A stretch of 64,000 nt of DNA, from the NCBI GenBank assembly GCA_021818105.1, contig JAKAFB010000001.1, positions 65,902 through 129,901 on the forward strand, in the 5' to 3' direction. The position numbers were made by a program, and so were the translations under genes. Below, one piece after another: positions 9,887 to 30,623 of the stretch. This DNA is from Acidobacteriota bacterium. Its GTDB lineage: Bacteria; Acidobacteriota; Terriglobia; Terriglobales; Acidobacteriaceae. Position 1 is the first letter of the stretch, and each line of letters begins with the position of its first letter. A model generated the notes under the pieces. That model was not told the DNA's origin. It ran no database searches and worked only from the letters and a program-made list of their open reading frames with translations.

Positions 9887-11589
<1,703 letters not shown>

Positions 11590-11593
<4 letters not shown>

Positions 11594-13738: not shown

Positions 13739-14062
13739 GTGTCAGAGGGCGGCTCACAACGTGGTGCACGCAGAAACAAGGTTTTCAAAGCGATGAACCG
13801 CCCGCTGACCGTTCTCGGTGCGGAGAGGCGATTGTTCTTTGTGGCGCTAATCGCGGGAGGCGCGGTCTTTTCGCTCATGCACTCGCTGGTCGGCGGCATC
13901 GTGCTGTTCATCGTGGGCGTCGCCATCGCCCGCATTGCGACGAAGCACGACGTGGAGATTCTGCGCGTGCTCTTCAACTCCGGCAAGTTCTGCCGCCGTT
14001 ATGACCCCATGAAGCCCGATGCGCTGGAGATCGCCGTCAGGAGGCGCGATGGTCAGAGTTGA
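13739..14062 (+). CDS. virB3: VirB3/TrbD family T4SS protein
   Basis: VFKAMNRPLTVLGAER, two TM helices, position between VirB2 and VirB4; AGGAGG RBS. Confidence 0.85.
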   Translation: MSEGGSQRGARRNKVFKAMNRPLTVLGAERRLFFVALIAGGAVFSLMHSLVGGIVLFIVGVAIARIATKHDVEILRVLFNSGKFCRRYDPMKPDALEIAVRRRDGQS

Positions 14063-16523
14063 TGCCATTAGAAAGGACTGGAAAGAAGCTGGCTCGTTTC
14101 CCGCACAGGTCAATCTATACGGGTTCTGGGACGAACACACTTTCCTGACCAAATCCGGCGACCTCGGCAGGGTGCTGAAGATCGGCGGCACCGACTACGA
14201 GAGCCTCGATCACGCCGGCAGGAATTATGCGGTCAAGCGCCTCGAAGCCGCCCTGCGCTCACTCGATGACAGGTGCCGCCTCTACCAAATCCTGTTCAAG
14301 CACAACCGGCCCGCAATACCCCATGCCGAGTATGACAGCCCGCTGGTCCGCGCTGCCGTGGAGCAGCGCGCGGCCTTTCTTCAGTCCAAAGCCGACCACC
14401 TATATTCCATCGAAATTGTTTGGGCAGTGATGGTCGATGGCAGCTATGCGAAGACCGGCCTGCTACACGCGCTCGGACAGTTGCCGAAACAGCCCGCCGC
14501 GTCGCTCGGCGACCTGCGCTCCCTGCTCTCCGGTAACAAGGAACGGACTCTGATCTATGAGCAGATCGAGCGCGACCGCCTGCGGTTGCAACAGAAAATC
14601 CAGAGTTTGAGTGGGCAGTTGAACGACCTGATGACGGTCGAACTGCCAGGGGCGGAAGAGACATTCCGCATACTGCGCCGTCTCGTGAACTTCCGCCCCT
14701 CGAAGATTCAGGATGCGAGGCTGTATAGCGCGCGGCGCATCGATTACCAGCTATGCGACTCGGAGCTTGAAGCGCATCGCGGCTACCTGCGCATGGACGA
14801 CGACTACCTGCGCGTGCTCACGCTGAAAGAGCTTCCGTCTGAGACGCGGCCTCTGCTGTTGCAGGGGCTGTTCGACATTCCCGCGAATTTTCACGTTGTG
14901 ACCGAGTGGCACCCGGTAGACAACGCCAGGGCGCGGAAAGAGATTGCCAGCCGTCGCCGGCATCACCACAACTCCAAGACCAGCTTTGTCTCGAACCTTC
15001 AGGACCGGCAGAATAGTGGGCCGAAAGACGAGCTGGTCGATGACTCGAAGGAGGCCGCGATCGCGGAACTGGGCGCGGCACTGACTGCGCTCGGTATGGA
15101 GAGCAAAAGCTTCGGCGAGTTCACTCTCTCGGTCGTGATCTACGACGAGGATCGCGGTAAGGTGGAACACGCCGTCGCTGAGTTCCAGAAACTGTTCACA
15201 CAGCATGACGGCTTGCTCTACGAAGAACGCTACAACCTGCTCAATGCCTTCTTTGCGACCATCCCAGGTAACCGACAGTTCAACCTGCGCAGGCAGTGGG
15301 CGCTCAATTCGAATTATGCCGACCTGTCGTTTCTCTTTACCATCGATAGCGGCAGCCAGTGGAACCCGCATCTGGAGCGGGAATACCTGCTGGCCCTCGA
15401 ATCGACGCACGGCACGCCGTATTTTTTGAACCTGCACTCCGGCGACGTGGCCCATGCGCTGCTGCTCGGCGCAACCGGGAGTGGCAAAAGCTTTTGCGTG
15501 GCCGCCACATTGCAGGCCGCGCAGAAATACGAGCCTCTGACCTTCATCTTCGATCTCGGCGGCAGCTACGAAACGCTGACACGCGTTTTTGGTGGAACCT
15601 ATCTCAACGTCGGCCTCAAAAATCCCGGCTTCACCATTAATCCGTTCTCGCTCGCAGCCACCAACGAGATCCGGAATTTTCTGTTTCTCTTCCTGCGCGT
15701 GCTGATCGAGTCCGGCGGACGCTATGAGCTGACGCCGGAAGACGAAAAGGCGCTGTTCGCCGCGATCGAGCGGGCTTACAAGCTGCCTGCAGCAATCCGG
15801 ACGCTGACCAATGTGGCGTCCATCCTCGGGCCCTTGGGGGAGCGGCTGCACCGCTGGACACAAGCGGGACAGTTCGGCCATCTCTTCGACAACGTGGAGG
15901 ACACGCTCTCATTCAGCCGGTTCCAAACCTTCAACTTCGATGGCTGGTCGGAGTACCCCGACGTGCTGGAGCCGTTGCTGTTCTATGTCCTTCAGCGCGC
16001 GTCGTCCGAGATTGAAAAACCCGCCAACACAGCCACCTTCAAGATGTTCGTGATCGACGAAGCGTGGATGTTTCTCAAGAACAAAACCATCCGCGACTGG
16101 ATTGTCCGGGCTGAGAAGACCTGGCGGAAAAAGAACGCCGCCATGATCCTGGCTACGCAGTCCGTGGTGGAACTGGCGGCCTCGGACTTGCTGCACATCG
16201 TCAACGAGTCCTGCCCGAACAAGATCTTCCTCGCCAATCCCAACATCGACCGCAGGCTGTACGCGGACATATTTCAGTTGAACGACACGCAGCTTGAGTT
16301 GCTGGAATCGCTCGTGCCCAAGCGCGAGCTGCTCGTGATCCAGCCACGCGGCACCAAGAAGCTGGTCTTGGACGTAGACGCCCTGACCTACTGGACCGCC
16401 ACCAACAACGCCCGCGACAACCTGCGCAGGCAGGACTATTTTTCTCGTTTTGGAGCAGAACAGGGGTTGCTCCAACTTGCCCACGGCTACCCCAATCCAA
16501 CCCACTCCGAGGTGATCCGATGA
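14049..16523 (+). CDS. virB4: VirB4/TrbE T4SS ATPase
   Basis: Walker A GATGSGKS, FIFDLGGSY, Walker B FVIDEAW, RKKNAAMILATQS. Confidence 0.95.
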   Translation: MVRVDAIRKDWKEAGSFPAQVNLYGFWDEHTFLTKSGDLGRVLKIGGTDYESLDHAGRNYAVKRLEAALRSLDDRCRLYQILFKHNRPAIPHAEYDSPLVRAAVEQRAAFLQSKADHLYSIEIVWAVMVDGSYAKTGLLHALGQLPKQPAASLGDLRSLLSGNKERTLIYEQIERDRLRLQQKIQSLSGQLNDLMTVELPGAEETFRILRRLVNFRPSKIQDARLYSARRIDYQLCDSELEAHRGYLRMDDDYLRVLTLKELPSETRPLLLQGLFDIPANFHVVTEWHPVDNARARKEIASRRRHHHNSKTSFVSNLQDRQNSGPKDELVDDSKEAAIAELGAALTALGMESKSFGEFTLSVVIYDEDRGKVEHAVAEFQKLFTQHDGLLYEERYNLLNAFFATIPGNRQFNLRRQWALNSNYADLSFLFTIDSGSQWNPHLEREYLLALESTHGTPYFLNLHSGDVAHALLLGATGSGKSFCVAATLQAAQKYEPLTFIFDLGGSYETLTRVFGGTYLNVGLKNPGFTINPFSLAATNEIRNFLFLFLRVLIESGGRYELTPEDEKALFAAIERAYKLPAAIRTLTNVASILGPLGERLHRWTQAGQFGHLFDNVEDTLSFSRFQTFNFDGWSEYPDVLEPLLFYVLQRASSEIEKPANTATFKMFVIDEAWMFLKNKTIRDWIVRAEKTWRKKNAAMILATQSVVELAASDLLHIVNESCPNKIFLANPNIDRRLYADIFQLNDTQLELLESLVPKRELLVIQPRGTKKLVLDVDALTYWTATNNARDNLRRQDYFSRFGAEQGLLQLAHGYPNPTHSEVIR

Positions 16524-17275
16524 ACCGCACGCCCATCTTGCCGCTCGTTCTTGGCCTGGTTGCGACCGTTGCCCACGGCCAGCAATCGGCCCGCATCGTC
16601 CATTACCACCAGAATGATATCGTGAGCATCCGCGCCCGGATGCACTACACCACGCTGATCGAATTGCCTGCGACCGAAAAGATCATGGAAGTCGCCACCG
16701 GCGATAAGGACTTCTGGATCATCGATGCGGTTGGTAATTATTGCTTTCTGCATCCCGCCCAGGCAGGCATTCACAGCGACTTGAATCTGATTACCGACAA
16801 GGGGAATGTCTATTCGTTCTTGCTGGATGACGACGAATCCGCCGAGCCAGATCTGAAGGTGGTCATCGAGCCGAGCGGCCCATCCTCTCTTGCCGCGGCC
16901 AATGGTGCGACAAAGTGGGTGCCTGCATCGGAAGTCACGTCCATTGAGGCACAGGCCAAGGCCATCGGCCAGCACGACGCCAATGCGGTCGAAACATTCC
17001 GCGCCAACTATCCGACTCAGAAATTGAAGTTCGATTACAGCTACAAGAACAAACCGCCGTTCAACGTTGCGGCCGTCTACCACGACGACAAATTCACTTA
17101 CATCAAGTCCTCCGCCTCTGAAAAGTTTGCCGTTTACGAAGTGAAAGACGGCAAACCCGACCTCATCAATTACCGGTTGCAGGACGACACCTACGTCATT
17201 CCCCAGGTGGTGGACAAAGGCTACCTCCAGATCGGCAAGCACAAGCTCACCTTCGAGCGGAAAGACGCCAGGTGA
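16520..17275 (+). CDS. virB9: VirB9/TrbG outer-membrane complex protein
   Basis: Signal peptide, YTTLIELPATEKI, NLITDKGNVYSF, VYHDDKFTYI; ATGA overlap. Confidence 0.88.
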   Translation: MNRTPILPLVLGLVATVAHGQQSARIVHYHQNDIVSIRARMHYTTLIELPATEKIMEVATGDKDFWIIDAVGNYCFLHPAQAGIHSDLNLITDKGNVYSFLLDDDESAEPDLKVVIEPSGPSSLAAANGATKWVPASEVTSIEAQAKAIGQHDANAVETFRANYPTQKLKFDYSYKNKPPFNVAAVYHDDKFTYIKSSASEKFAVYEVKDGKPDLINYRLQDDTYVIPQVVDKGYLQIGKHKLTFERKDAR

Positions 17276-18531
17276 GAACCATGCCGGAAGAGAGAACAAC
17301 TCCTGAAGTGAAAACAGAGGCGTCCTCGCCGGAGGTGCATCCGCCGAGCGCGACGCTCCGCGACAAGCGCGTGCTGCCCGAAGGCGTCGTGCCCAAACAG
17401 GCGCAGGCGTATGTGGTCGCCGGACTTGCGCTGTTGATTCTGATGGCTGTGCTGTTCTCGAAGAACCATGCGAGGACCGCGCCGAAGGAATTGGCGCCTC
17501 CTCCGGCCTCTGTGTCGAATGACATAAATCAGCAGCGGATTCACGAACTGGAGCAGGACTTGAGCGCCGACCAGCGCCAGATTCAGCAGCAGGCCCAGGC
17601 GCAGAAGTCCGGCGCGACGGCAGCGCCGGGAAGCGCAGCCTCTGCGGGTGGGACCGCTCAGACCAGCGATGTTAATCCTTCCGGACCGTCGCAGGCGCCT
17701 GCGCAGCCTCCCCGCGATCCGATTGCCGATGCGGAAAAGGCTCTGGCCTTCAAATCCCGGTTCGCTTCGAACCTCGTGAGTCCAGTTGAAGCGACACCTC
17801 CCGCCGCGACCGGCGCGAGCGCACAGCCGAATCCATCTCCCGCGAATCGCGCTCAGAGTTCACAGGGGCAGACTTCTGCTCCGCAGCCCGCCGATGCCGC
17901 CGGCAAACGCGCGCCCGAGGTCAACATCGACGCGGCACACGGCCGCCCCTATGTGATCTTCGAGGGCACGACCATCGATACTGTGCTGACCAACCGACTC
18001 GACGGCGAGTTCGCCGGGCCGGTCAAGGTGATGGTGACCAATCCCGTCTACAGCCGCGACGGCCAGCATGTGCTGATTCCAGCAGGAACCTTCCTTCTGG
18101 GCGACGTTCAGAAGATCTCGAACTTTGCTCAAAAGCGGCTGGCCGTGACCTTCCACCGCATGATCATGCCGGATGGATACTCGGTCGATCTCGACCAGTT
18201 CCACGGCCTCGACCAGATCGGCGACACCGGACTCAAAGATAAAGTCAACCACCATTATGTGCAGATTTTCGGAGCGTCGATTGCGCTGGGCGTGATCGCA
18301 GGCGCTGCCGAAGCCACCACCTACGGCAACGGTTATACCTTCAGCGGTCCCTCCATGTACGAGCAGGGAGTGGCGTCGAGCCTGTCGCAATCGAGTGCGG
18401 ACGTGCTTGACCGCTTCGTCAATATTCTGCCCACGATCACCATCCGCGAAGGCCACCGGATCAAGGTTTACATCACCCAGGACATGCTCCTGCCCGCCTA
18501 CGACGACCATGACATGCCGGGGGTGATGTGA
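17272..18531 (+). CDS. virB10: VirB10/TrbI
   Basis: N-terminal TM, Pro/Ala/Gln-rich linker, GTTIDTVLTNRLDG, RLAVTFHRMIMPDG, PTITIREG. Confidence 0.92.
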   Translation: MRTMPEERTTPEVKTEASSPEVHPPSATLRDKRVLPEGVVPKQAQAYVVAGLALLILMAVLFSKNHARTAPKELAPPPASVSNDINQQRIHELEQDLSADQRQIQQQAQAQKSGATAAPGSAASAGGTAQTSDVNPSGPSQAPAQPPRDPIADAEKALAFKSRFASNLVSPVEATPPAATGASAQPNPSPANRAQSSQGQTSAPQPADAAGKRAPEVNIDAAHGRPYVIFEGTTIDTVLTNRLDGEFAGPVKVMVTNPVYSRDGQHVLIPAGTFLLGDVQKISNFAQKRLAVTFHRMIMPDGYSVDLDQFHGLDQIGDTGLKDKVNHHYVQIFGASIALGVIAGAAEATTYGNGYTFSGPSMYEQGVASSLSQSSADVLDRFVNILPTITIREGHRIKVYITQDMLLPAYDDHDMPGVM

Positions 18532-19540: not shown

Positions 19541-20365
19541 ATGCAGCCAAACCCCTTTGCCGCCTTAAACCAGGCGATCAGCCAACTGATTACCTCCAAC
19601 AGCGCCACATTGCAGGCCACGGGGCTCAACATCTTCCGTGGCCTGGCCGTGATCCTGATTACCTGGTTCGGCATCAAGTCCGCGCTCTCTGCCACGCAGG
19701 GGCACGGTGGCGGATTTCACTTCGCAAAGTTTGCCGACCTGATTCTGATGATCTCCTTTGGGTTGGGGATGCTGACGTATTACTCGTCGCCGATTCCAGG
19801 CGTGGGTTACAGCTTCTCGGACCTCGTGACGAAGGAAGCCCAGAACATCTCTAACCAGATCGAGTCCGACCAGACGCAGCAGATCGCCAACACCATCGTC
19901 AACGCGGAAGAGCAGCTCGGCGCGCCTCCAGGCAAGTACAGCATCCTCGAAGACCTGACCTACCTTCTGATCGCGGTGATTCTCGCCGCCATGGAAGCCG
20001 TGGCCTTCGCCGTCATTGCATACGGTCTGGTCGCCTCAGCGGTCTGCGTGCTGATCGGCCCGATGTTCATCCCATGGTTCATCGTGCCCAAGATGGACTG
20101 GCTCTTCTGGGGCTGGTTCAAGGCATTTATCGGCTTCAGCTTCTATCAGGTCATCGCTTCGGCCTTCATCTATGTCTTCGCCAAAGTGCTCACCGCGATG
20201 TTTCAGGTCATCGGCAAGATCAGCATCTCGAATGCGCTGACCGTCCTGCCCGTCCTCTTTATCACCCTTATGGTCTGCATCTACGGCCTGGTCAAGATAC
20301 CGGAACTGACGGGCGCGATTCTCAGTGGCCGCGCTGGAACCTGGGTCAACCCGATGGGGAGATAG
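19541..20365 (+). CDS. virB6: VirB6/TrbL inner-membrane protein
   Basis: Polytopic; IGPMFIPWFIVPKMDWLFWGW, KIPELTGAILSG. Confidence 0.88.
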   Translation: MQPNPFAALNQAISQLITSNSATLQATGLNIFRGLAVILITWFGIKSALSATQGHGGGFHFAKFADLILMISFGLGMLTYYSSPIPGVGYSFSDLVTKEAQNISNQIESDQTQQIANTIVNAEEQLGAPPGKYSILEDLTYLLIAVILAAMEAVAFAVIAYGLVASAVCVLIGPMFIPWFIVPKMDWLFWGWFKAFIGFSFYQVIASAFIYVFAKVLTAMFQVIGKISISNALTVLPVLFITLMVCIYGLVKIPELTGAILSGRAGTWVNPMGR

Positions 20366-20369
20366 CGTC

Positions 20370-21047
20370 ATGAAGAATACTTCGTTTCAAACGTCGGAAG
20401 CCGGACATAAATTCATCGAGCTATATGCGGAGCCTGTTGTCACCAATACATACCTGAAAATCGCGCTGCTGGTGCTCTCTGTCGTCGCAGTCGCCTTGTT
20501 TGCGTTCCTCTATCGAGCCGAGACCGCTGCCTCACGGCTGAAGCCGCTGGTCATCTCCATTTCGGACGTCGGGCGCGGCCAGGTGATGAACTATGACGAC
20601 TTCTCGAAGATCCCCGTAGACCGCGTGAGCAAGTATTATCTTGCCCGCTGGTGCCAGCTTTACTACGGACGCAATCACGCGACATTGCAGCGGGACTTCT
20701 CGCAGTCGCTCGATTTCTTTTCGAACCAGTTGCAGTCCGCCACTCTCCAGCGGGTGAACCAGCAGAAGACCTTGCAGACATTCCTGCTCGATCCGAGTGC
20801 GCTGGACGTGGACATCGAGATCGACGCCGTCAATCTCATCGATCTGCGCCAGCAGCCCTATAGCGCACAGATTCAGTTCGAGAAAATCTTCCGCTCGCCC
20901 GGCGACGGCCAGGAGCAGCGCCGCGAACGCTGGACCGCGAATGTTCTGTATAGCTTCCGCGATTCAGTACCGAACGCCATGCTGCTGACCAACCCGCTTG
21001 GTCTGGTCATCAGCTACGTCCACGAAGACCAGGCATTCGGGAGCTGA
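20370..21047 (+). CDS. virB8: VirB8/TrbF family protein
   Basis: Single TM followed by NTF2-like domain ending NPLGLVI. Confidence 0.88.
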   Translation: MKNTSFQTSEAGHKFIELYAEPVVTNTYLKIALLVLSVVAVALFAFLYRAETAASRLKPLVISISDVGRGQVMNYDDFSKIPVDRVSKYYLARWCQLYYGRNHATLQRDFSQSLDFFSNQLQSATLQRVNQQKTLQTFLLDPSALDVDIEIDAVNLIDLRQQPYSAQIQFEKIFRSPGDGQEQRRERWTANVLYSFRDSVPNAMLLTNPLGLVISYVHEDQAFGS

Positions 21048-22166: not shown

Positions 22167-23771
22167 ATGAGATACCTCTCTGTATGCTCGGGCATCGAAG
22201 CCGTATCGGTAGCGTGGCAACCGCTCGGCTGGCAGGCCGCCATGTTCGCAGAGATCGACCCCTTCTGTTGTTGGCTGCTGCGCTCGCGCTATCGCGCATC
22301 GCGGCCCATCTTTATGCCGAGTCCGCATGACGCGCCTGACAGGACGGAAGCCAAGCACCGCGCGGCAGCCATTCGCAACGTTGTTGCTCTGCCTGCTGAT
22401 GGCGACGTTATCAACGCGGGCGATTTCACAAAAATAGGTAAAAAGGATGTGGGAACAATCGACCTTCTGGCCGGAGGAACACCTTGCCAGTCTTTCTCCA
22501 TTGCCGGTAAGCGAGCGGGGCTGGATGACCCGCGTGGCAACCTCACCATCGAGTTTGCTCGACTTGCTGATCGCCTCCGGCCCACTTGGCTGGTGTGGGA
22601 GAACGTCCCCGGCGTCCTGTCGATCGACGGCGGACGGACGTTTGGAGCCTTCCTCCGAATGCTGGTCGAGTGCGGGTATGGGATCGCCTACCGAGTTTTG
22701 GACGCTCAATTTGCCGGAGTACCCCAGCGCCGGCGCCGCGTCTTCGTTGTCGGACATCTTGGAGACTGGAGAGGTCCCGCAGCAGTATTTCTTGAGTTCG
22801 CGGGCCTGTCAGGGTATCCTCCGCCGCGCCGACAAGCGCGGAAAGGAACTGCCGGGGGCGTTGAAGTCGGCCCTGCTGGCGGTCGTCTCACAGATACTGC
22901 ACCCACCATCGATAGAGGGTGCAGGGATGGCCTCACCCGCAATCAATTAGGCATCGGTGTCCTTTCATCGACGGATGAGATATCCCATTGCCTGAATGCC
23001 GGTGGCATGGGCAGACAGGACTTCGAGACAGAGACGCTGATTGCGCATTCACTCTCTGCGGATGGCTTCGACACCAGGGTCCCCGCAGACAGGTCTTCGT
23101 CTGTGGGGTGGGAGGCGAGCGAAGACGGAACCGGGCGCGGCGTGCCGATGGTTCCAGTCGCCATCGGCACCGCGCATACGAAATCGAACGGCAGCGGCTT
23201 TTCGGATCACATCGCACACACTCTGGAGAGCGGCGGTGACCAGGCCGTCGCCTTCAATCTGCGCGGCAGAGAGGGCGGCGCGCTGCCAGAGTTGACTGGC
23301 GCTGTCAGCCTCCGCGCATCCACTGGAGGCAGCAGCAACAGTTACATTGCGTTTTCCGCCAAAGACTGTGGCGCCGATGCGGGTGGTATCGCTCCCACGC
23401 TGCGCGGCATGGGATACGATGGCAGCCATGCCAACGGCGGCGGACAGGTAGCCGTCGCGTGGACACAGGAACTTACCGCATCGACTGATATAGTCGGGAC
23501 TCTTCAGCGCGGCGGCAAAGGCGGACGTGCCGATGGCGGCTTGACATCGCAGATGGCCGTGCGGCGATTGACGCCACGCGAGTGCGAGCGCTTGCAGGGA
23601 TTTCCCGACGATTACACCCTAGTCGAGTATCGCGGCAGGCTTGCAGCCGACGGTCCCCGCTACAAGGCACTCGGCAACTCTATGGCTGTCCCGGTCATGC
23701 GCTGGATCGGACAACGCATCACAGCCGTCGATGCCATCCTCCGTGAGCACGGCGCGAGGAGGGAGCCATGA
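22167..23771 (+). CDS. Orphan DNA cytosine-C5 methyltransferase with an unusually long variable region
   Basis: YLSVCSGIE (I), GGTPCQSFS (IV), WENVPG (VI), PQRRRRVF (VIII), RRLTPRECERLQGFP (IX), ALGNSM (X). Confidence 0.95.
   Translation: MRYLSVCSGIEAVSVAWQPLGWQAAMFAEIDPFCCWLLRSRYRASRPIFMPSPHDAPDRTEAKHRAAAIRNVVALPADGDVINAGDFTKIGKKDVGTIDLLAGGTPCQSFSIAGKRAGLDDPRGNLTIEFARLADRLRPTWLVWENVPGVLSIDGGRTFGAFLRMLVECGYGIAYRVLDAQFAGVPQRRRRVFVVGHLGDWRGPAAVFLEFAGLSGYPPPRRQARKGTAGGVEVGPAGGRLTDTAPTIDRGCRDGLTRNQLGIGVLSSTDEISHCLNAGGMGRQDFETETLIAHSLSADGFDTRVPADRSSSVGWEASEDGTGRGVPMVPVAIGTAHTKSNGSGFSDHIAHTLESGGDQAVAFNLRGREGGALPELTGAVSLRASTGGSSNSYIAFSAKDCGADAGGIAPTLRGMGYDGSHANGGGQVAVAWTQELTASTDIVGTLQRGGKGGRADGGLTSQMAVRRLTPRECERLQGFPDDYTLVEYRGRLAADGPRYKALGNSMAVPVMRWIGQRITAVDAILREHGARREP
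22447..22950 (+). CDS. 167-aa ORF nested in the +1 frame of the C5-MTase (M.EcoHK31I beta-like arrangement)
   Basis: ATG after AGGT; C-terminal block SSLSDILETGEVPQQYFLSSRACQGILRRADKRGKELPGAL looks like real protein, of a type I recall from phage/ICE MTase loci. Confidence 0.65.
   Translation: MWEQSTFWPEEHLASLSPLPVSERGWMTRVATSPSSLLDLLIASGPLGWCGRTSPASCRSTADGRLEPSSECWSSAGMGSPTEFWTLNLPEYPSAGAASSLSDILETGEVPQQYFLSSRACQGILRRADKRGKELPGALKSALLAVVSQILHPPSIEGAGMASPAIN
23070..23117 (+). repeat. Palindromic coding-sequence insertion, copy 1 (in C5-MTase)
   Basis: GACACC-[36-bp core 23076-23111; stem CCCCGCAGAC/GTCTGTGGGG, loop AGGTCTTC]-GAGGCG. Confidence 0.85.
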
Positions 23772-24199
23772 GCCTCCGCTCCTTAACGGTGTTGGCGCTT
23801 TCCTCGCGGAAGAGAGCAGACCTCGACCTTCGCCCTGTCCTTATCCCCTCGACATCCAGATCGCGCAGCTTCGCCTTCCGCGTAGTCGCCCAGGAGCGGA
23901 CCCTCGCACAGTACCGGCAAGAAGGCAACGATGCGGAAGATTGCCGAACGTGGTTCACCCACTCACCGCTGGTCTACGCCGACCGGAAAACGCGACAGAA
24001 CGGACGACTCCGGTACGCAGCTTGCGAATCAAGCGCATCGTTGCCCAGACCCCTTCAGACGGATGTTTCCGTAGAGCGCCCTCTCTCCCGGACTTTCCCA
24101 TGTCTCACTCGGTCACTCGCTCGGTGCTTATCCCGCGCCCTGCGGCAGCTGCGCGGCTCTGCTTCGCACTACGTGCGCCCTTACGGGTTTCGGCTTTCA

Positions 24200-24249
24200 G
24201 AAAATCTTTTCGGCAAAACTCCGCAAAGAACGCGGACGAAAAGATTTTC
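24200..24249. repeat. Compound hairpin upstream of ssb
   Basis: Perfect 13-bp IR GAAAATCTTTTCG/CGAAAAGATTTTC enclosing a 5-bp IR TCCGC/GCGGA. Confidence 0.8.
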
Positions 24250-24406
24250 CGAACCTTCCGAAAATGCGCCGCTTGGCCTTGGGAGCGGGGCACATTCACC
24301 ACCCCAGCGCGCAGATTGCGCGCGCTCGGGGACCCCGGTACTCGCGTCGCTTCGCGCAGGAGTGTCCCGAGTAAGAACAGGGCAAATCCAAACAGGAGTT
24401 AAAGCA

Positions 24407-24856
24407 ATGGCACTCTATACCAACACCGTCACCGTGAAGGGTTACCTAGGCAAGGACGCTGAGACCTTCGCCACCAAGAACCAGAAGACAGCCGTCGTCC
24501 TGTCGCTCGCCACCAAGTCCGGCTATAAGGACCAGCGGACGAACGAGTGGGTGAACCGCACCGAATGGCACCGCATCGTGGCTTTCGGCAAGCCCGCCGA
24601 TTACGCGAAGGGCCTGAAGAAGGGCGACTACGTCGAAGTCGAAGGCGAACTGCGCTCGACCGAGTACGAGAAGGAAGTCGGGCGGGGCAAGAGCAAGGTC
24701 AAGGTCACCTTCCGCGACAAGGAAGTGCGCGCCAACACCGTGAAGAAGCTCGCAGGACCGGCGAAAGGGGAGAATCTCGACGCCGGGGTCCCCACGGACA
24801 GGTCTTCGTCCGTGGGGTGGGACGCCGATCCCATCACGGAGGAGGACGCCGCGTAA
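24407..24856 (+). CDS. ssb: Single-stranded DNA-binding protein
   Basis: NTVTVKGYLGKD, SLAT, TEWHRIVAFGK, KGDYVEVEGELRS; AGGAG RBS. Confidence 0.93.
   Translation: MALYTNTVTVKGYLGKDAETFATKNQKTAVVLSLATKSGYKDQRTNEWVNRTEWHRIVAFGKPADYAKGLKKGDYVEVEGELRSTEYEKEVGRGKSKVKVTFRDKEVRANTVKKLAGPAKGENLDAGVPTDRSSSVGWDADPITEEDAA
24779..24826 (+). repeat. Palindromic coding-sequence insertion, copy 2 (in SSB tail) with perfect 6-bp flanking direct repeat
   Basis: GACGCC-[36-bp core 24785-24820; perfect 10-bp stem CCCCACGGAC/GTCCGTGGGG, loop AGGTCTTC]-GACGCC. Confidence 0.88.
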
Positions 24857-28577: not shown

Positions 28578-30623
28578 GTGAGCCTTATGAATTTTCGCGC
28601 GCATCTACAACGCCTCACACATCCACTGATCGAGTATCGAATCCTGCTCTCGTTCGGACTGAGCGCGGCCTGCGGCATAATCCTGAGTAGCCTCTACCCC
28701 ATCAACATCATGAATCCGATGCTGCACCTGATCGCGTTAAAGCAGCCTCTAGTCTTTCATGCGCTGGTCTGGAGCTACGATCTGTTTCTCTACAGCACGC
28801 CGTTCCTGATTCTGTCCACGATATTCTCGCTCGCCTACATCCACATATATAGGAGAGAGTCGGACGAAGCAGCCGGATCACTCCCACCGTACCCCGATCC
28901 GCGATCGAGACAGGACCTGTCTCTGGTCGTCGGCGAGTTGCACCGGCAGCTTGTCCTCAGGCCCAGCCCGGCCCCGCAGTGGCTCACCATACCGGAATGC
29001 GGTCTCTATACCGGGACCTGCATTGTGGGCGCTACCGGATCGGGTAAGACTCTGGCCCTGGTCCTTCCGGCCATGCGCCAGTTGTTCGCCTACTGCGCCA
29101 ACGATTCCGAACGGAAGCTCTCCGGCGTCGTGCTCGAAGTCAAGGGCGATCTCTGCCGCCAGCTCCGGCGCATCCTCAAGTGGTGCGGACGGGAGCAGGA
29201 TTATGTCGAGGTCTCACTGGACGGCAACATCCGCTACAACCCGCTGAACAATTCGCTCGATCCCTACGCCCAGGCGTTCAACATCGCCTCTATCATTACC
29301 AGCATCTGGGGCAAGGGCAAGGAACCCTTCTGGCAGCAGTCCTACACCGATCTCGTCCGGTATGTGATTCTGCTCCACCGCGTCCGCGATGGATACCTGA
29401 CGCTGGTCGACCTCTTCCGCACCGTCATCAGCGCGGGGCGTCTGGAAGAGATGCTGATTGAGGTGGGATCGCGTTTCAGCCGGACGCAGTACATCGGTAT
29501 TGGCAAAAACGCCTACCAGAAATATGAATCCGCGCTGTCGCCGCTCGGATTCGAGTGGAACAAGGATGCGAAGCAGTACCTTGCCGTATGGACCGAGGAG
29601 TTGGAACGGCTGCTCGTTCATGAGACAGATGCTGAGTTCTTCATCTACACCCGGAAGCCATACATGCTGGAGCAATATGACCGCTTCGACAGTGTGCGGT
29701 ACTGGTATTGGGAGCACTGGAAGTTCTTCCGCTCCGAAGTCAAGACCTCGATCATCCAGGGCATTGTGGTCTTCCTGTCGCTATTCGAGACCGATCCTCA
29801 GGTGCGCCGCGTCTTCTGCCCGCCGAAAGAACTCTATGAAGGCAAGCCATGCGCCGGCGATCCCAAAGGCCGCGTCCTGCCGCCGTTCGAGGAACTGATT
29901 GAGATGGGTATGGTCGTCGGCCTGAACTTTCCCGTAGCCCTGAACCCGGCGCTGGCCAAAACCATCGGCACGCTGATGAAGATCGACTACCAGCGTGCGG
30001 TCCTGCTGCGCATCCTAAAGATGGACGCGGAACCGGAGAAGCACTTCCGCCCCACCGTGTTTCTCTGCGACGAATACCAGAACTTCGCCACGGTTGGGGG
30101 CGATAACCCGACTGGCGATGAGAGATTCCTGTCCATCTCACGCCAGCCTAAGTGCGTTCCCATTGTTGCCACGCAAAGCATCTCCAGCCTGAAGGACGCT
30201 CTGCCTAATGAAGGAGTGAAAACACTGCTGCAGGCATTCCGCACCAAGGTATTCCTCACGACCTCCGATCCCGAAACTGCGCGCTACGCATCGGAGCTTT
30301 GCGGCAAGGCGGACCGGACACGGATCAGTTACACCGTCTCCGAGTCCTCGACCAACGCCAACGTTGGCTGGCTTTCCGGCCGCACCGCATCGAGCAAAGG
30401 CTCCGTCTCGGCTTCCAAGCAGTACCAGAAACACAAAGAGCCGCTCTTCGAGGAAAAGGTCTTCTTCGATCTCAAAAATGCTCAGGCGGTCGTGGTTGCC
30501 TTCGATGGCGTCGCCCCGTTGCTTCCGACCTACTGCTATCTCAAGCCCTATTTCCTGCCCGTCACCATGACCTGGTTCGAGCAGGAGCGGATCGGCTTCG
30601 ATCCCCGGAGGATACCTGCGTGA
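28578..30623 (+). CDS. virD4: Type IV coupling protein (VirD4/TraD/TrwB family)
   Basis: Two N-terminal TMs, Walker A GATGSGKT, VLEVKGD, Walker B LCDEYQNF, SRQ...IVATQS. Confidence 0.9.
   Translation: MSLMNFRAHLQRLTHPLIEYRILLSFGLSAACGIILSSLYPINIMNPMLHLIALKQPLVFHALVWSYDLFLYSTPFLILSTIFSLAYIHIYRRESDEAAGSLPPYPDPRSRQDLSLVVGELHRQLVLRPSPAPQWLTIPECGLYTGTCIVGATGSGKTLALVLPAMRQLFAYCANDSERKLSGVVLEVKGDLCRQLRRILKWCGREQDYVEVSLDGNIRYNPLNNSLDPYAQAFNIASIITSIWGKGKEPFWQQSYTDLVRYVILLHRVRDGYLTLVDLFRTVISAGRLEEMLIEVGSRFSRTQYIGIGKNAYQKYESALSPLGFEWNKDAKQYLAVWTEELERLLVHETDAEFFIYTRKPYMLEQYDRFDSVRYWYWEHWKFFRSEVKTSIIQGIVVFLSLFETDPQVRRVFCPPKELYEGKPCAGDPKGRVLPPFEELIEMGMVVGLNFPVALNPALAKTIGTLMKIDYQRAVLLRILKMDAEPEKHFRPTVFLCDEYQNFATVGGDNPTGDERFLSISRQPKCVPIVATQSISSLKDALPNEGVKTLLQAFRTKVFLTTSDPETARYASELCGKADRTRISYTVSESSTNANVGWLSGRTASSKGSVSASKQYQKHKEPLFEEKVFFDLKNAQAVVVAFDGVAPLLPTYCYLKPYFLPVTMTWFEQERIGFDPRRIPA

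Follow-up and report, generated by a model that had tools for sequence, protein, structure and literature searches.

Two genes of a conjugative element (ICE), one for a C5 DNA cytosine methyltransferase (MTase) and the other, ssb, for the single-stranded DNA-binding protein SSB, each contain, in frame, a copy of the same 36-bp DNA hairpin. Both genes lie in a 64-kb stretch of DNA from an Acidobacteriota bacterium, which is referred to as the window throughout. The locus raises the question of what this hairpin is and how it came to be inside two open reading frames (ORFs). To address this we compared the window with the rest of its own genome (G000) and with related genomes; the labels G, C, and L denote the genomes, contigs, and loci compared. 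The comparison makes it probable that the hairpins are copies of a non-autonomous mini-element that is or was mobile, with the 36-bp stem-loop as its whole unit.

Anatomy of the hairpin

A preliminary description of the window, made from its sequence alone, had reported two 36-bp cores differing at 4 positions, each with a 10-bp stem and the common loop AGGTCTTC, and both read as VP[AT]DRSSSVGW in the frame of the host gene. All of this, coordinates included, was found again on the sequence (Table 1; copy 1, AGGGTCCCCGCAGACAGGTCTTCGTCTGTGGGGTGG; copy 2, GGGGTCCCCACGGACAGGTCTTCGTCCGTGGGGTGG). Between copy 1 and copy 2 one stem pair changes from A-T to G-C, which is the covarying pair that had been noticed, and another changes from G.T to A-T. 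A degenerate 35-mer pattern allowing up to 3 mismatches has 2 matches in the window, namely the two cores, and none in 100 dinucleotide shuffles. Both copies are predicted to fold into the expected DNA hairpins, with modest + strand z values against shuffles of −2.3 and −1.9.

The consensus, and the statistics on duplication and variation reported below, are derived from 163 copies. The consensus reads (CC)GGGGT-CCCC-NNN-GAC-AGGTCTTC-GTC-NNN-GGGG-TGG and consists of a GGGGT head, a 10-bp stem, an 8-nt loop and a TGG tail, 36 bp in all. Conservation is approximately 99% for the loop and both ends of the stem, while the head is found in 80–99% of copies, with no GTAG or GTGG beside the stem. The termini are asymmetric, with GGGGT at one end and TGG at the other, and there is no inverted repeat at the outermost bases. 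The three middle pairs of the stem (NNN) covary: 13 fully Watson-Crick triplet types occur, and the paired fraction of 0.90 drops to 0.56 (maximum 0.64) if arms are exchanged at random between distinct sequences. G.T pairs are more numerous than A.C pairs (61 to 9 cells; 19 to 9 distinct types), so that folding is better for the strand as written than for the complementary one.

Also observed was a second subtype of the hairpin, GGGGTCCCC-NNN-RAGC-GRTCTTT-GCTY-NNN-GGGGTG, which occurs in addition as part of recurrent composite dimers, joined there to the 3′ two thirds of the main type (..AAGGGACAGGTCTTCGTCCGTGGGGTGG).

Empty and filled alleles of the host genes

Alleles without the hairpin, which the preliminary description had proposed to look for among orthologues, exist for both genes at the level of protein and of DNA. 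Orthologues of ssb with 84–96% identity encode 135 rather than 149 residues and lack exactly DAGVPTDRSSSVGW, while in the MTase P0122, with 95% identity, and in most other orthologues TRVPADRSSSVGWE is missing and the protein is shorter by 14 residues. The peptides predicted for the empty state, ..NLDADPITE.. and ..GFDASEDG.., are exactly those of the orthologues. At the DNA level, the syntenic element L155 (TrbL-VirB8-MTase-ssb), whose flanks match the window exactly for tens of bases, is empty at both sites, and in ssb it has a single GACGCC where the window has GACGCC-core-GACGCC. The more distant element L156 is filled in the MTase (GACGCC-core-GAGGCG) and empty in ssb. From the comparison of these sites it follows that the target of both insertions is TCGACGCC.

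The flanks of the two cores are as they had been described, a perfect GACGCC repeat in ssb and GACACC/GAGGCG in the MTase. Judging by these features the ssb insertion, which is located in the C-terminal tail of the protein, looks young since its duplication and its stem are both perfect, while the MTase insertion looks older since both copies of the repeat are mutated, the head has become AGGGT and the stem contains a G.T pair. The decayed GAGGCG is common to the window and L156, although the window flanks match the empty L155, so that the MTase insert must either have recombined between elements or have been precisely lost in some of them. In a diverged clade of ssb (65–75% identity) an insert is found at the same position and is partly decayed.

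Distribution of the family

Additional copies, which had also been proposed as a check, exist: the genome of the window (3.6 Mb, 136 contigs) has 4 copies in all, 2 in the ICE and 2 non-coding, and there are hundreds across the genus. In public records labelled Terracidiphilus, the genus of the window, the hairpin is present in 22 of 24 genomes, with 1–64 copies each on both strands, and a reversed-pattern control over these genomes gave no matches. In 16 genomes from a sister family within the same order none was found. Of 200 further genomes from the same family (142 genera) 15 contain the hairpin, mostly in 1–7 copies, and among the 200 were two additional genomes of the genus with 16 and 33 copies. 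A scan of one genome per prokaryotic species returned at least 120 stretches, nearly all labelled Terracidiphilus or uncultured Acidobacteriaceae. Two copies, in L038, come from a record labelled as an uncultured Gammaproteobacteria metagenome-assembled genome (MAG), the others among the matches listed being Acidobacteriaceae, and L038 is probably a mis-binned or mislabelled contig.

Variants private to one genome are present in multiple copies, such as the loop CTTGG, found 13 times in G015, or the CCTC or CTAC variants in G012, which points to recent multiplication within lineages. As judged from these genome comparisons, the hairpin family has multiplied within the Terracidiphilus lineage. 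The ICE was considered as a carrier to other genera and rejected, as none of the 12 sporadic copies in other genera is in a homologue of ssb or of the MTase.

The suggestion that the family was undescribed has held up. Rfam gave no relevant match (E ≤ 1; two hairpin-carrying loci), plasmid and phage collections gave no match to the hairpin, the GTAG and CGTC definitions of repetitive extragenic palindromic (REP) sequences in the literature searched do not fit it, and the literature search found no paper linking Terracidiphilus or Acidobacteria to such a repeat. Because no catalogued family matches and the defining features of known classes are lacking, we class the hairpin as a new family, and we read it as a previously undescribed, non-autonomous mini-element resembling REPs and Rickettsia palindromic elements (RPEs).

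Target duplication and 42-bp arrays

The preliminary description had further claimed that insertion duplicates the target, and this is borne out as a statistical property of the family. When the 6 nt to the left of the core are compared with the 6 nt to its right, the mean number of matches is 2.69 at offset 0 and 1.2–1.9 at seven other offsets. The flanking hexamers are perfect repeats in 12 of the 163 copies and match at 5 of 6 positions in 19, while shared 5-mers in the flanks fall on the offset-0 diagonal 17 times against 0.8 expected. A weaker second class of duplication corresponds to a footprint of 45 bp (10 against 0.7 expected). The duplicated hexamers are diverse, including GACGCC, AAAGCC, TCATGC, AGATGC, TCAACC, GAAGCC and others, with ..A.CC favoured. 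As read from the flanks, insertion comes with a direct duplication of the target, usually of 6 bp. Since the 36 bp of the core and a 6-bp duplication add up to 42 bp, or 14 codons, the reading frame is kept in any gene insertion.

Clustered copies are arranged head-to-tail with an exact period of 42 bp, occasionally 41 bp, and variants of 43 and 45 bp also occur; the spacer is the flanking hexamer. One example has six in-frame units encoding AGVPSDRSSSLGWK in a CoaE-like gene. Such arrays would arise secondarily, through slippage between the duplicated flanking hexamers. By eye, the variable triplet of the stem did not go consistently with particular duplicated hexamers. Reconstructed empty sites are predicted to fold slightly better than controls (p = 0.07 and 0.015), which is suggestive of a preference for the loops of pre-existing hairpins but does not establish it. 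In the genome of the window a palindromic unit of approximately 130 nt is filled with the hairpin in two paralogues and precisely empty in two, the difference being 43 bp.

Search for a mobilizing enzyme

A link to a REP-associated tyrosine transposase (RAYT) or other transposase, raised in the preliminary description, was not borne out, as no linked transposase gene was found. Genes lying between paired or clustered copies were rejected as candidates because they are ordinary genes (cupin, PIN-TRAM, response regulator, methyl-accepting chemotaxis protein, RapZ), and an HNH endonuclease between an inverted pair in G007 was rejected as a universal single-copy gene. The only Y1 transposase gene adjacent to a copy, in L149, was rejected because that copy interrupts it and the hairpins on its own two sides are of a different family. 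This IS200-like gene (L149:2020-2690, G009:C16) lies between long hairpins, CCCCGTTCATCGCG-gttttat-CGCGATGAACGGGG upstream and a matching hairpin downstream, in a manner similar to terminal inverted repeat-associated tyrosine transposases (TIRYTs); the 36-bp copy lies antisense within a YIHRNPVKRGLV motif and the gene has an apparent frameshift.

A Y1/HUH enzyme similar to RAYTs or TIRYTs is the leading candidate for the mobilizing activity, albeit a tentative one. An enzyme of a type not yet described is rather doubtful, and the DDE transposase of an unseen insertion sequence (IS) more doubtful again. The target duplication is unlike the products of known Y1 enzymes. A bolder proposal, which we consider rather unlikely, is that the 36-nt hairpin is a complete transposable unit moved by a structure-specific enzyme or pathway that is not tied to any IS or REP family. 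If this were true the hairpin would be the smallest known element to generate a target duplication, its enzyme might attack single-stranded DNA exposed by replication or transcription, and the 42-bp footprint (36+6) would have been selected for colonizing coding sequence without breaking the frame.

The enrichment of flanking 6-bp direct repeats, the perfect 10-bp inverted repeat formed by the arms and the 41-, 43-, and 45-bp period variants, as would result from sloppy staggered cuts, could also be produced by a classical miniature inverted-repeat transposable element (MITE) reduced to its two terminal inverted repeats and moved by cut-and-paste, with the DDE transposase of a full-length IS making 6-bp staggered cuts. 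A parent IS with the hairpin arms at its ends was therefore looked for as a candidate and rejected: no longer element with one arm per end was found in approximately 1.3 Mb of loci or in the genome of the window, the counts of left halves and of right halves equal those of full copies in three copy-rich genomes, and the apparent “solo” right halves turned out to be composite hairpin dimers. The termini (GGGGT, TGG) are not inverted repeats, the middles of the arms are free to vary provided that the changes are compensated, and the bias in wobble pairs speaks for the folding of a single strand. A classical MITE is thus unlikely.

Copies inside and outside genes

About a quarter of the copies are inside genes. 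Hosts confirmed by Pfam are an S9 peptidase, RNase R, an FG-GAP/ASPIC protein, an alpha-amylase, RibD, UvrA, a GH3 glycosidase and the Lhr helicase, with UvrA hit at two independent sites. For 24 filled genes the genome of the window encodes an insert-free orthologue, with a gap of 14 residues in most; target duplications could not be recovered at the DNA level from these orthologues, which are too diverged. The 40 coding copies, some of which are orthologous (for example L084 and L107) so that independent events are slightly fewer, comprise 22 in the sense frame G[VA]PxDRSSSxGW, 8 in the antisense frame HPxDEDLSxGTP and 10 in other frames, and by orientation 30 are sense and 10 are not. A model with a preference for CC targets only would place 20% in the G[VA]PxDRSSSxGW frame, and the simplest explanation for the excess would be that selection favours a hydrophilic loop which the protein tolerates.

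The remaining three quarters or so of the copies are non-coding, and those within longer palindromes are usually without the 6-bp repeat. Intergenic copies lie between convergent genes in 31 cases and between divergent genes in 13, and 65 of 101 are 3′ of a co-oriented gene. Neighbouring copies along chromosomes have the same orientation in 46 pairs and different orientations in 21 (permutation p ~0.001). Relative to dnaA the written strand is on the leading-strand template in 21 of 31 copies by our own count; the gene-strand majorities on G005:C2 agree in direction, while GC skew (20 samples, 20-kb) was too noisy to give replichore switch points. A link between copy orientation and replication is therefore put forward tentatively.

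A separate cluster was noted in L165:2150-6370 (G226:C12), where 5 co-oriented copies are scattered over 4.2 kb between unrelated genes (cupin, PIN-TRAM, response regulator). Four of the five have a common genome-private stem variant and an identical longer palindrome, GCCCCATTCATGCGCGCACC-core-TTGGGCGCATGAGTGGG.

The excess of intergenic copies between convergent genes and 3′ of co-oriented genes is like that of mRNA-stabilizing REPs, and could indicate an immobile module selected by the host as an RNA stabilizer or processing site, or as a protein linker, and spread by recombination, gene conversion and slippage. The MTase insertion common to diverged elements suggests conversion, and slippage alone would suffice for the tandem arrays. 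However, copies dispersed over dozens of unrelated sites, with 6-bp duplications specific to each site, are not accounted for by recombination, and the same holds for insertions into unrelated housekeeping genes in either orientation and in several frames; the bursts of genome-private variants are left unexplained too. The lack of a matching Rfam family also speaks against an immobile module, which is very unlikely. Least likely of all is spread through an RNA copy that is transcribed, reverse-transcribed and inserted at a staggered nick by target-primed reverse transcription, as in a miniature short interspersed nuclear element (SINE), since the G.U-compatible wobbles on one strand, the sense bias of coding copies and the variable length of the duplication would suit it, but no reverse transcriptase is linked (none was sought), the hairpin has neither a 3′ tail nor anything resembling poly-A, orientation at the scale of the chromosome seems tied to replication rather than to transcription, and single-stranded DNA accounts equally well for the wobble bias.

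Weighing the proposed mobile mini-element

Several observations weigh against a mobile mini-element. Movement was not directly observed, no mobilizing gene was found for the hairpin, and no REPtron-like arrangement, in which a RAYT gene is flanked by copies, was seen in the sample of genomes inspected. Y1_Tnp (PF01797) genes are present in 23 of the 24 genus genomes, including both of those that are free of hairpins, so there is no clean correlation, and Y1 transposition is not known to make a target duplication. A recognizable 6-bp repeat flanks only about a third of copies, and conservation is higher in the CC directly 5′ of the core (72%, 88%) than at the corresponding positions to its right, so that a pure duplication model falls short. 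Many non-coding copies are at the apex of longer palindromes, and because these recur together with the core part of the spread was probably as larger composite units. The decayed GAGGCG is common to the filled MTase alleles of diverged elements, yet an allele with 95% identity has no insert, which requires recombination or precise loss in addition to fresh insertion.

A mobile mini-element remains the reading we prefer. The window copies would then be passengers, one an old insertion in a variable region of the MTase and the other a young insertion in the C-terminal tail of SSB, both made at a GACGCC target, and they may be tolerated because they add a hydrophilic loop rich in Gly, Pro, and Ser (GVPxDRSSSxGW). 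The combination of sequence-specific loop and stem ends, a middle conserved in shape only, wobble pairs on one strand and asymmetric termini favours recognition as a folded single strand, which would be carried out by an enzyme acting in trans. Such an enzyme would read the loop, the top of the stem (GAC/GTC) and its base (CCCC/GGGG) by sequence, and the three middle pairs by shape. Copying would be tied to the strand asymmetry of replication or transcription.

Features of the window and associated loci

The host genes of both copies belong to the conjugative element, other genes of which are listed in Table 1. The start of ssb is at 24407, not 24408. A 362-aa ORF (23768-24856) crosses the spacer between the MTase and ssb (23768-24406) and continues into ssb in the ssb frame; in the syntenic L155 this spacer contains a separate 186-aa gene.

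Table 1. Positions of the hairpin copies, their host genes and associated features (window coordinates unless a locus or contig is named; a slash marks the empty site)
Feature	Position	Strand	Details
Host gene 1, C5 DNA cytosine methyltransferase (MTase)	22167..23771	+	ORF 534 aa, PF00145; insert-free orthologues 520 aa
Left target copy, MTase	23070..23075	+	Decayed, GACACC (empty site GACGCC); L155 empty site GGCTTCGACGCC/AGCGAAGAC
Core in MTase (copy 1)	23076..23111	+	Apparently older; head AGGGT, stem CCCCGCAGAC with GTCTGTGGGG and one G.T, loop AGGTCTTC, tail TGG
Right target copy, MTase	23112..23117	+	Decayed, GAGGCG; same GAGGCG in filled L156 allele
Host gene 2, ssb	24407..24856	+	149 aa, PF00436; closest orthologues 135 aa
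Left target copy, ssb	24779..24784	+	GACGCC
Core in ssb (copy 2)	24785..24820	+	Apparently young; perfect 10-bp stem CCCCACGGAC with GTCCGTGGGG; identical to non-coding copy G000:C65:25020
Right target copy, ssb	24821..24826	+	GACGCC, perfect; L155 empty site CTCGACGCC/GAGCCC
Serine recombinase of conjugative element	9920-11593
VirB4 of conjugative element	14019-16523
TrbI of conjugative element	17272-18531
TrbL of conjugative element	19541-20365
VirB8 of conjugative element	20325-21047
Coupling protein of conjugative element	28578-30623
Second-subtype and composite loci	L200:2020-2090, L201, L202, L203, L204:1580-1650 (G009); L037:3391, L079:7627, L094
Palindromic unit with hairpin	L002:9078-9215 (G000:C67), L001:9885-10000 (G000:C65)
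Palindromic unit without hairpin	G000:C62:1-190, G000:C82:1-210	-

The non-coding palindromic unit of approximately 130 nt, GGCCCGGGTGCCGG...GGTTGCCCCGGGTGCC^TCGCATTT CGGCACCCGGGATCGC (where ^ is the hairpin site), is present in at least 4 copies in the genome of the window. It is also the insertion target of an IS of the IS110/IS1111 type, whose left end (TGGGATAAGGAAGAAGG...) comes after GCATTTGA in C62 and C82 and whose right end (...TTGACACAGCCTTCTTCCTTATCGAT) adjoins GGGCACCCGGGATCGCA in C31, a junction at which contig C65 also breaks. A second IS110-family transposase ORF of 345 aa, with the C-terminus KVAIARKLAVRMYWML, is found at L002:7785-9080, and the right end of this element (TTGACAACGCCGACACGGTTATAGAT) adjoins the 5′ arm of the palindromic unit. 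The ORF is followed by a non-coding stretch of 240 nt. In IS1111-type elements a guide (bridge or seek) RNA is encoded in the non-coding stretch downstream of the transposase ORF.

Comparison with known systems

In common with REPs and REPINs (REP doublets forming hairpins), the hairpin is an imperfect palindrome in the 20–40-bp range, present in tens of copies that are mostly extragenic and often 3′ of genes, with compensated variation in the stem and presumed recognition as a folded single strand. It differs in its head, which is GGGGT rather than the GT[AG]G of REPs, in the head-to-tail 42-bp arrays formed by its copies, where REPs form inverted doublets (REPINs or bacterial interspersed mosaic elements, BIMEs), and in that no RAYT gene flanked by copies was found in the sample of genomes inspected. 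We know of no report of REPs making 6-bp direct repeats such as those that flank this hairpin. REPs inside ORFs have been reported occasionally, in several phyla (PMC3733652, PMC10969869). REPs tagged with a terminal CGTC (Di Nocera et al. 2013) have an 8–9-bp stem starting with A/T, a 4–5-nt loop and a CCA tail (PMC3733652). They are likewise small stem-loops that carry a tag, have a short tail left unpaired and lack a transposase of their own, and RPE-4 and RPE-6 are found in ORFs (PMC3733652). Here, in contrast, a 10-bp stem starting with CCCC is closed by a loop of 8 nt, and the strand with the GGGGT head has TGG as its tail.

Bacterial MITEs (Correia/NEMIS, Nezha, RUP) are typically 50–500 bp in length, with a recognizable parent IS and matching terminal repeats. 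The hairpin resembles them in being non-autonomous, in its inverted-repeat arms and target-site duplication and in occasional in-frame fusion to host ORFs. A duplication of fixed length, as expected of MITEs, is found (6 bp at exactly offset 0), recognizable in about a third of copies. The present family differs in that the 36-bp hairpin, with its asymmetric ends, is the entire element, and in that the search for a parent IS found none.

Y1 genes of the TIRYT type have been reported in Acidobacteria (PMC3733652, PMC6006769), and the Y1 gene of L149, flanked by hairpins of another family, is as described for them (PMC3733652). The subterminal hairpins of the IS200/IS605 family offer a possible further parallel, since they are recognized by their structure on one strand and their orientation is coupled to replication. 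The wobble bias and regional coherence of the present hairpin would be compatible with this, the replication link being tentative. However, IS200/IS605 elements insert 3′ of a fixed tetra- or pentanucleotide without duplication, whereas the hexamers duplicated here are diverse.

Palindromes that colonize essential genes in frame are familiar above all from Rickettsia, and have been regarded as a peculiarity of genomes that are reduced. In 2000 Ogata et al. reportedly described RPEs as inserting in frame in functional genes and adding a peptide segment without a transposase of their own. The present hairpin too sits in frame in functional genes of unrelated function. RPEs are approximately 100–150 bp in length and belong to alphaproteobacterial obligate intracellular organisms, while this element is 36 + 6 bp and is found in free-living Acidobacteriaceae, where it has a statistically supported target duplication and an exact 42-bp unit. 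It is set apart from RPE-1 to RPE-10 by its length, and its sequence is presumably unrelated to theirs. RPEs are short palindromic repeats found in frame in unrelated housekeeping genes and also in non-coding DNA (PMC10969869).

The same in-frame colonization is now seen in free-living soil Acidobacteria, with an element that is four times smaller and has sharp boundaries. For dozens of genes, such as uvrA, RNase R, ribD, lhr, coaE and, from the ICE, ssb and dcm, both empty and filled alleles can be compared, and these make it possible to test how such elements move, why proteins tolerate them and whether new protein loops arise from them. For practical work on Terracidiphilus MAGs, the resulting 14-aa indels and 42-bp arrays will be a source of error when orthologues are aligned, genes called and strains typed.

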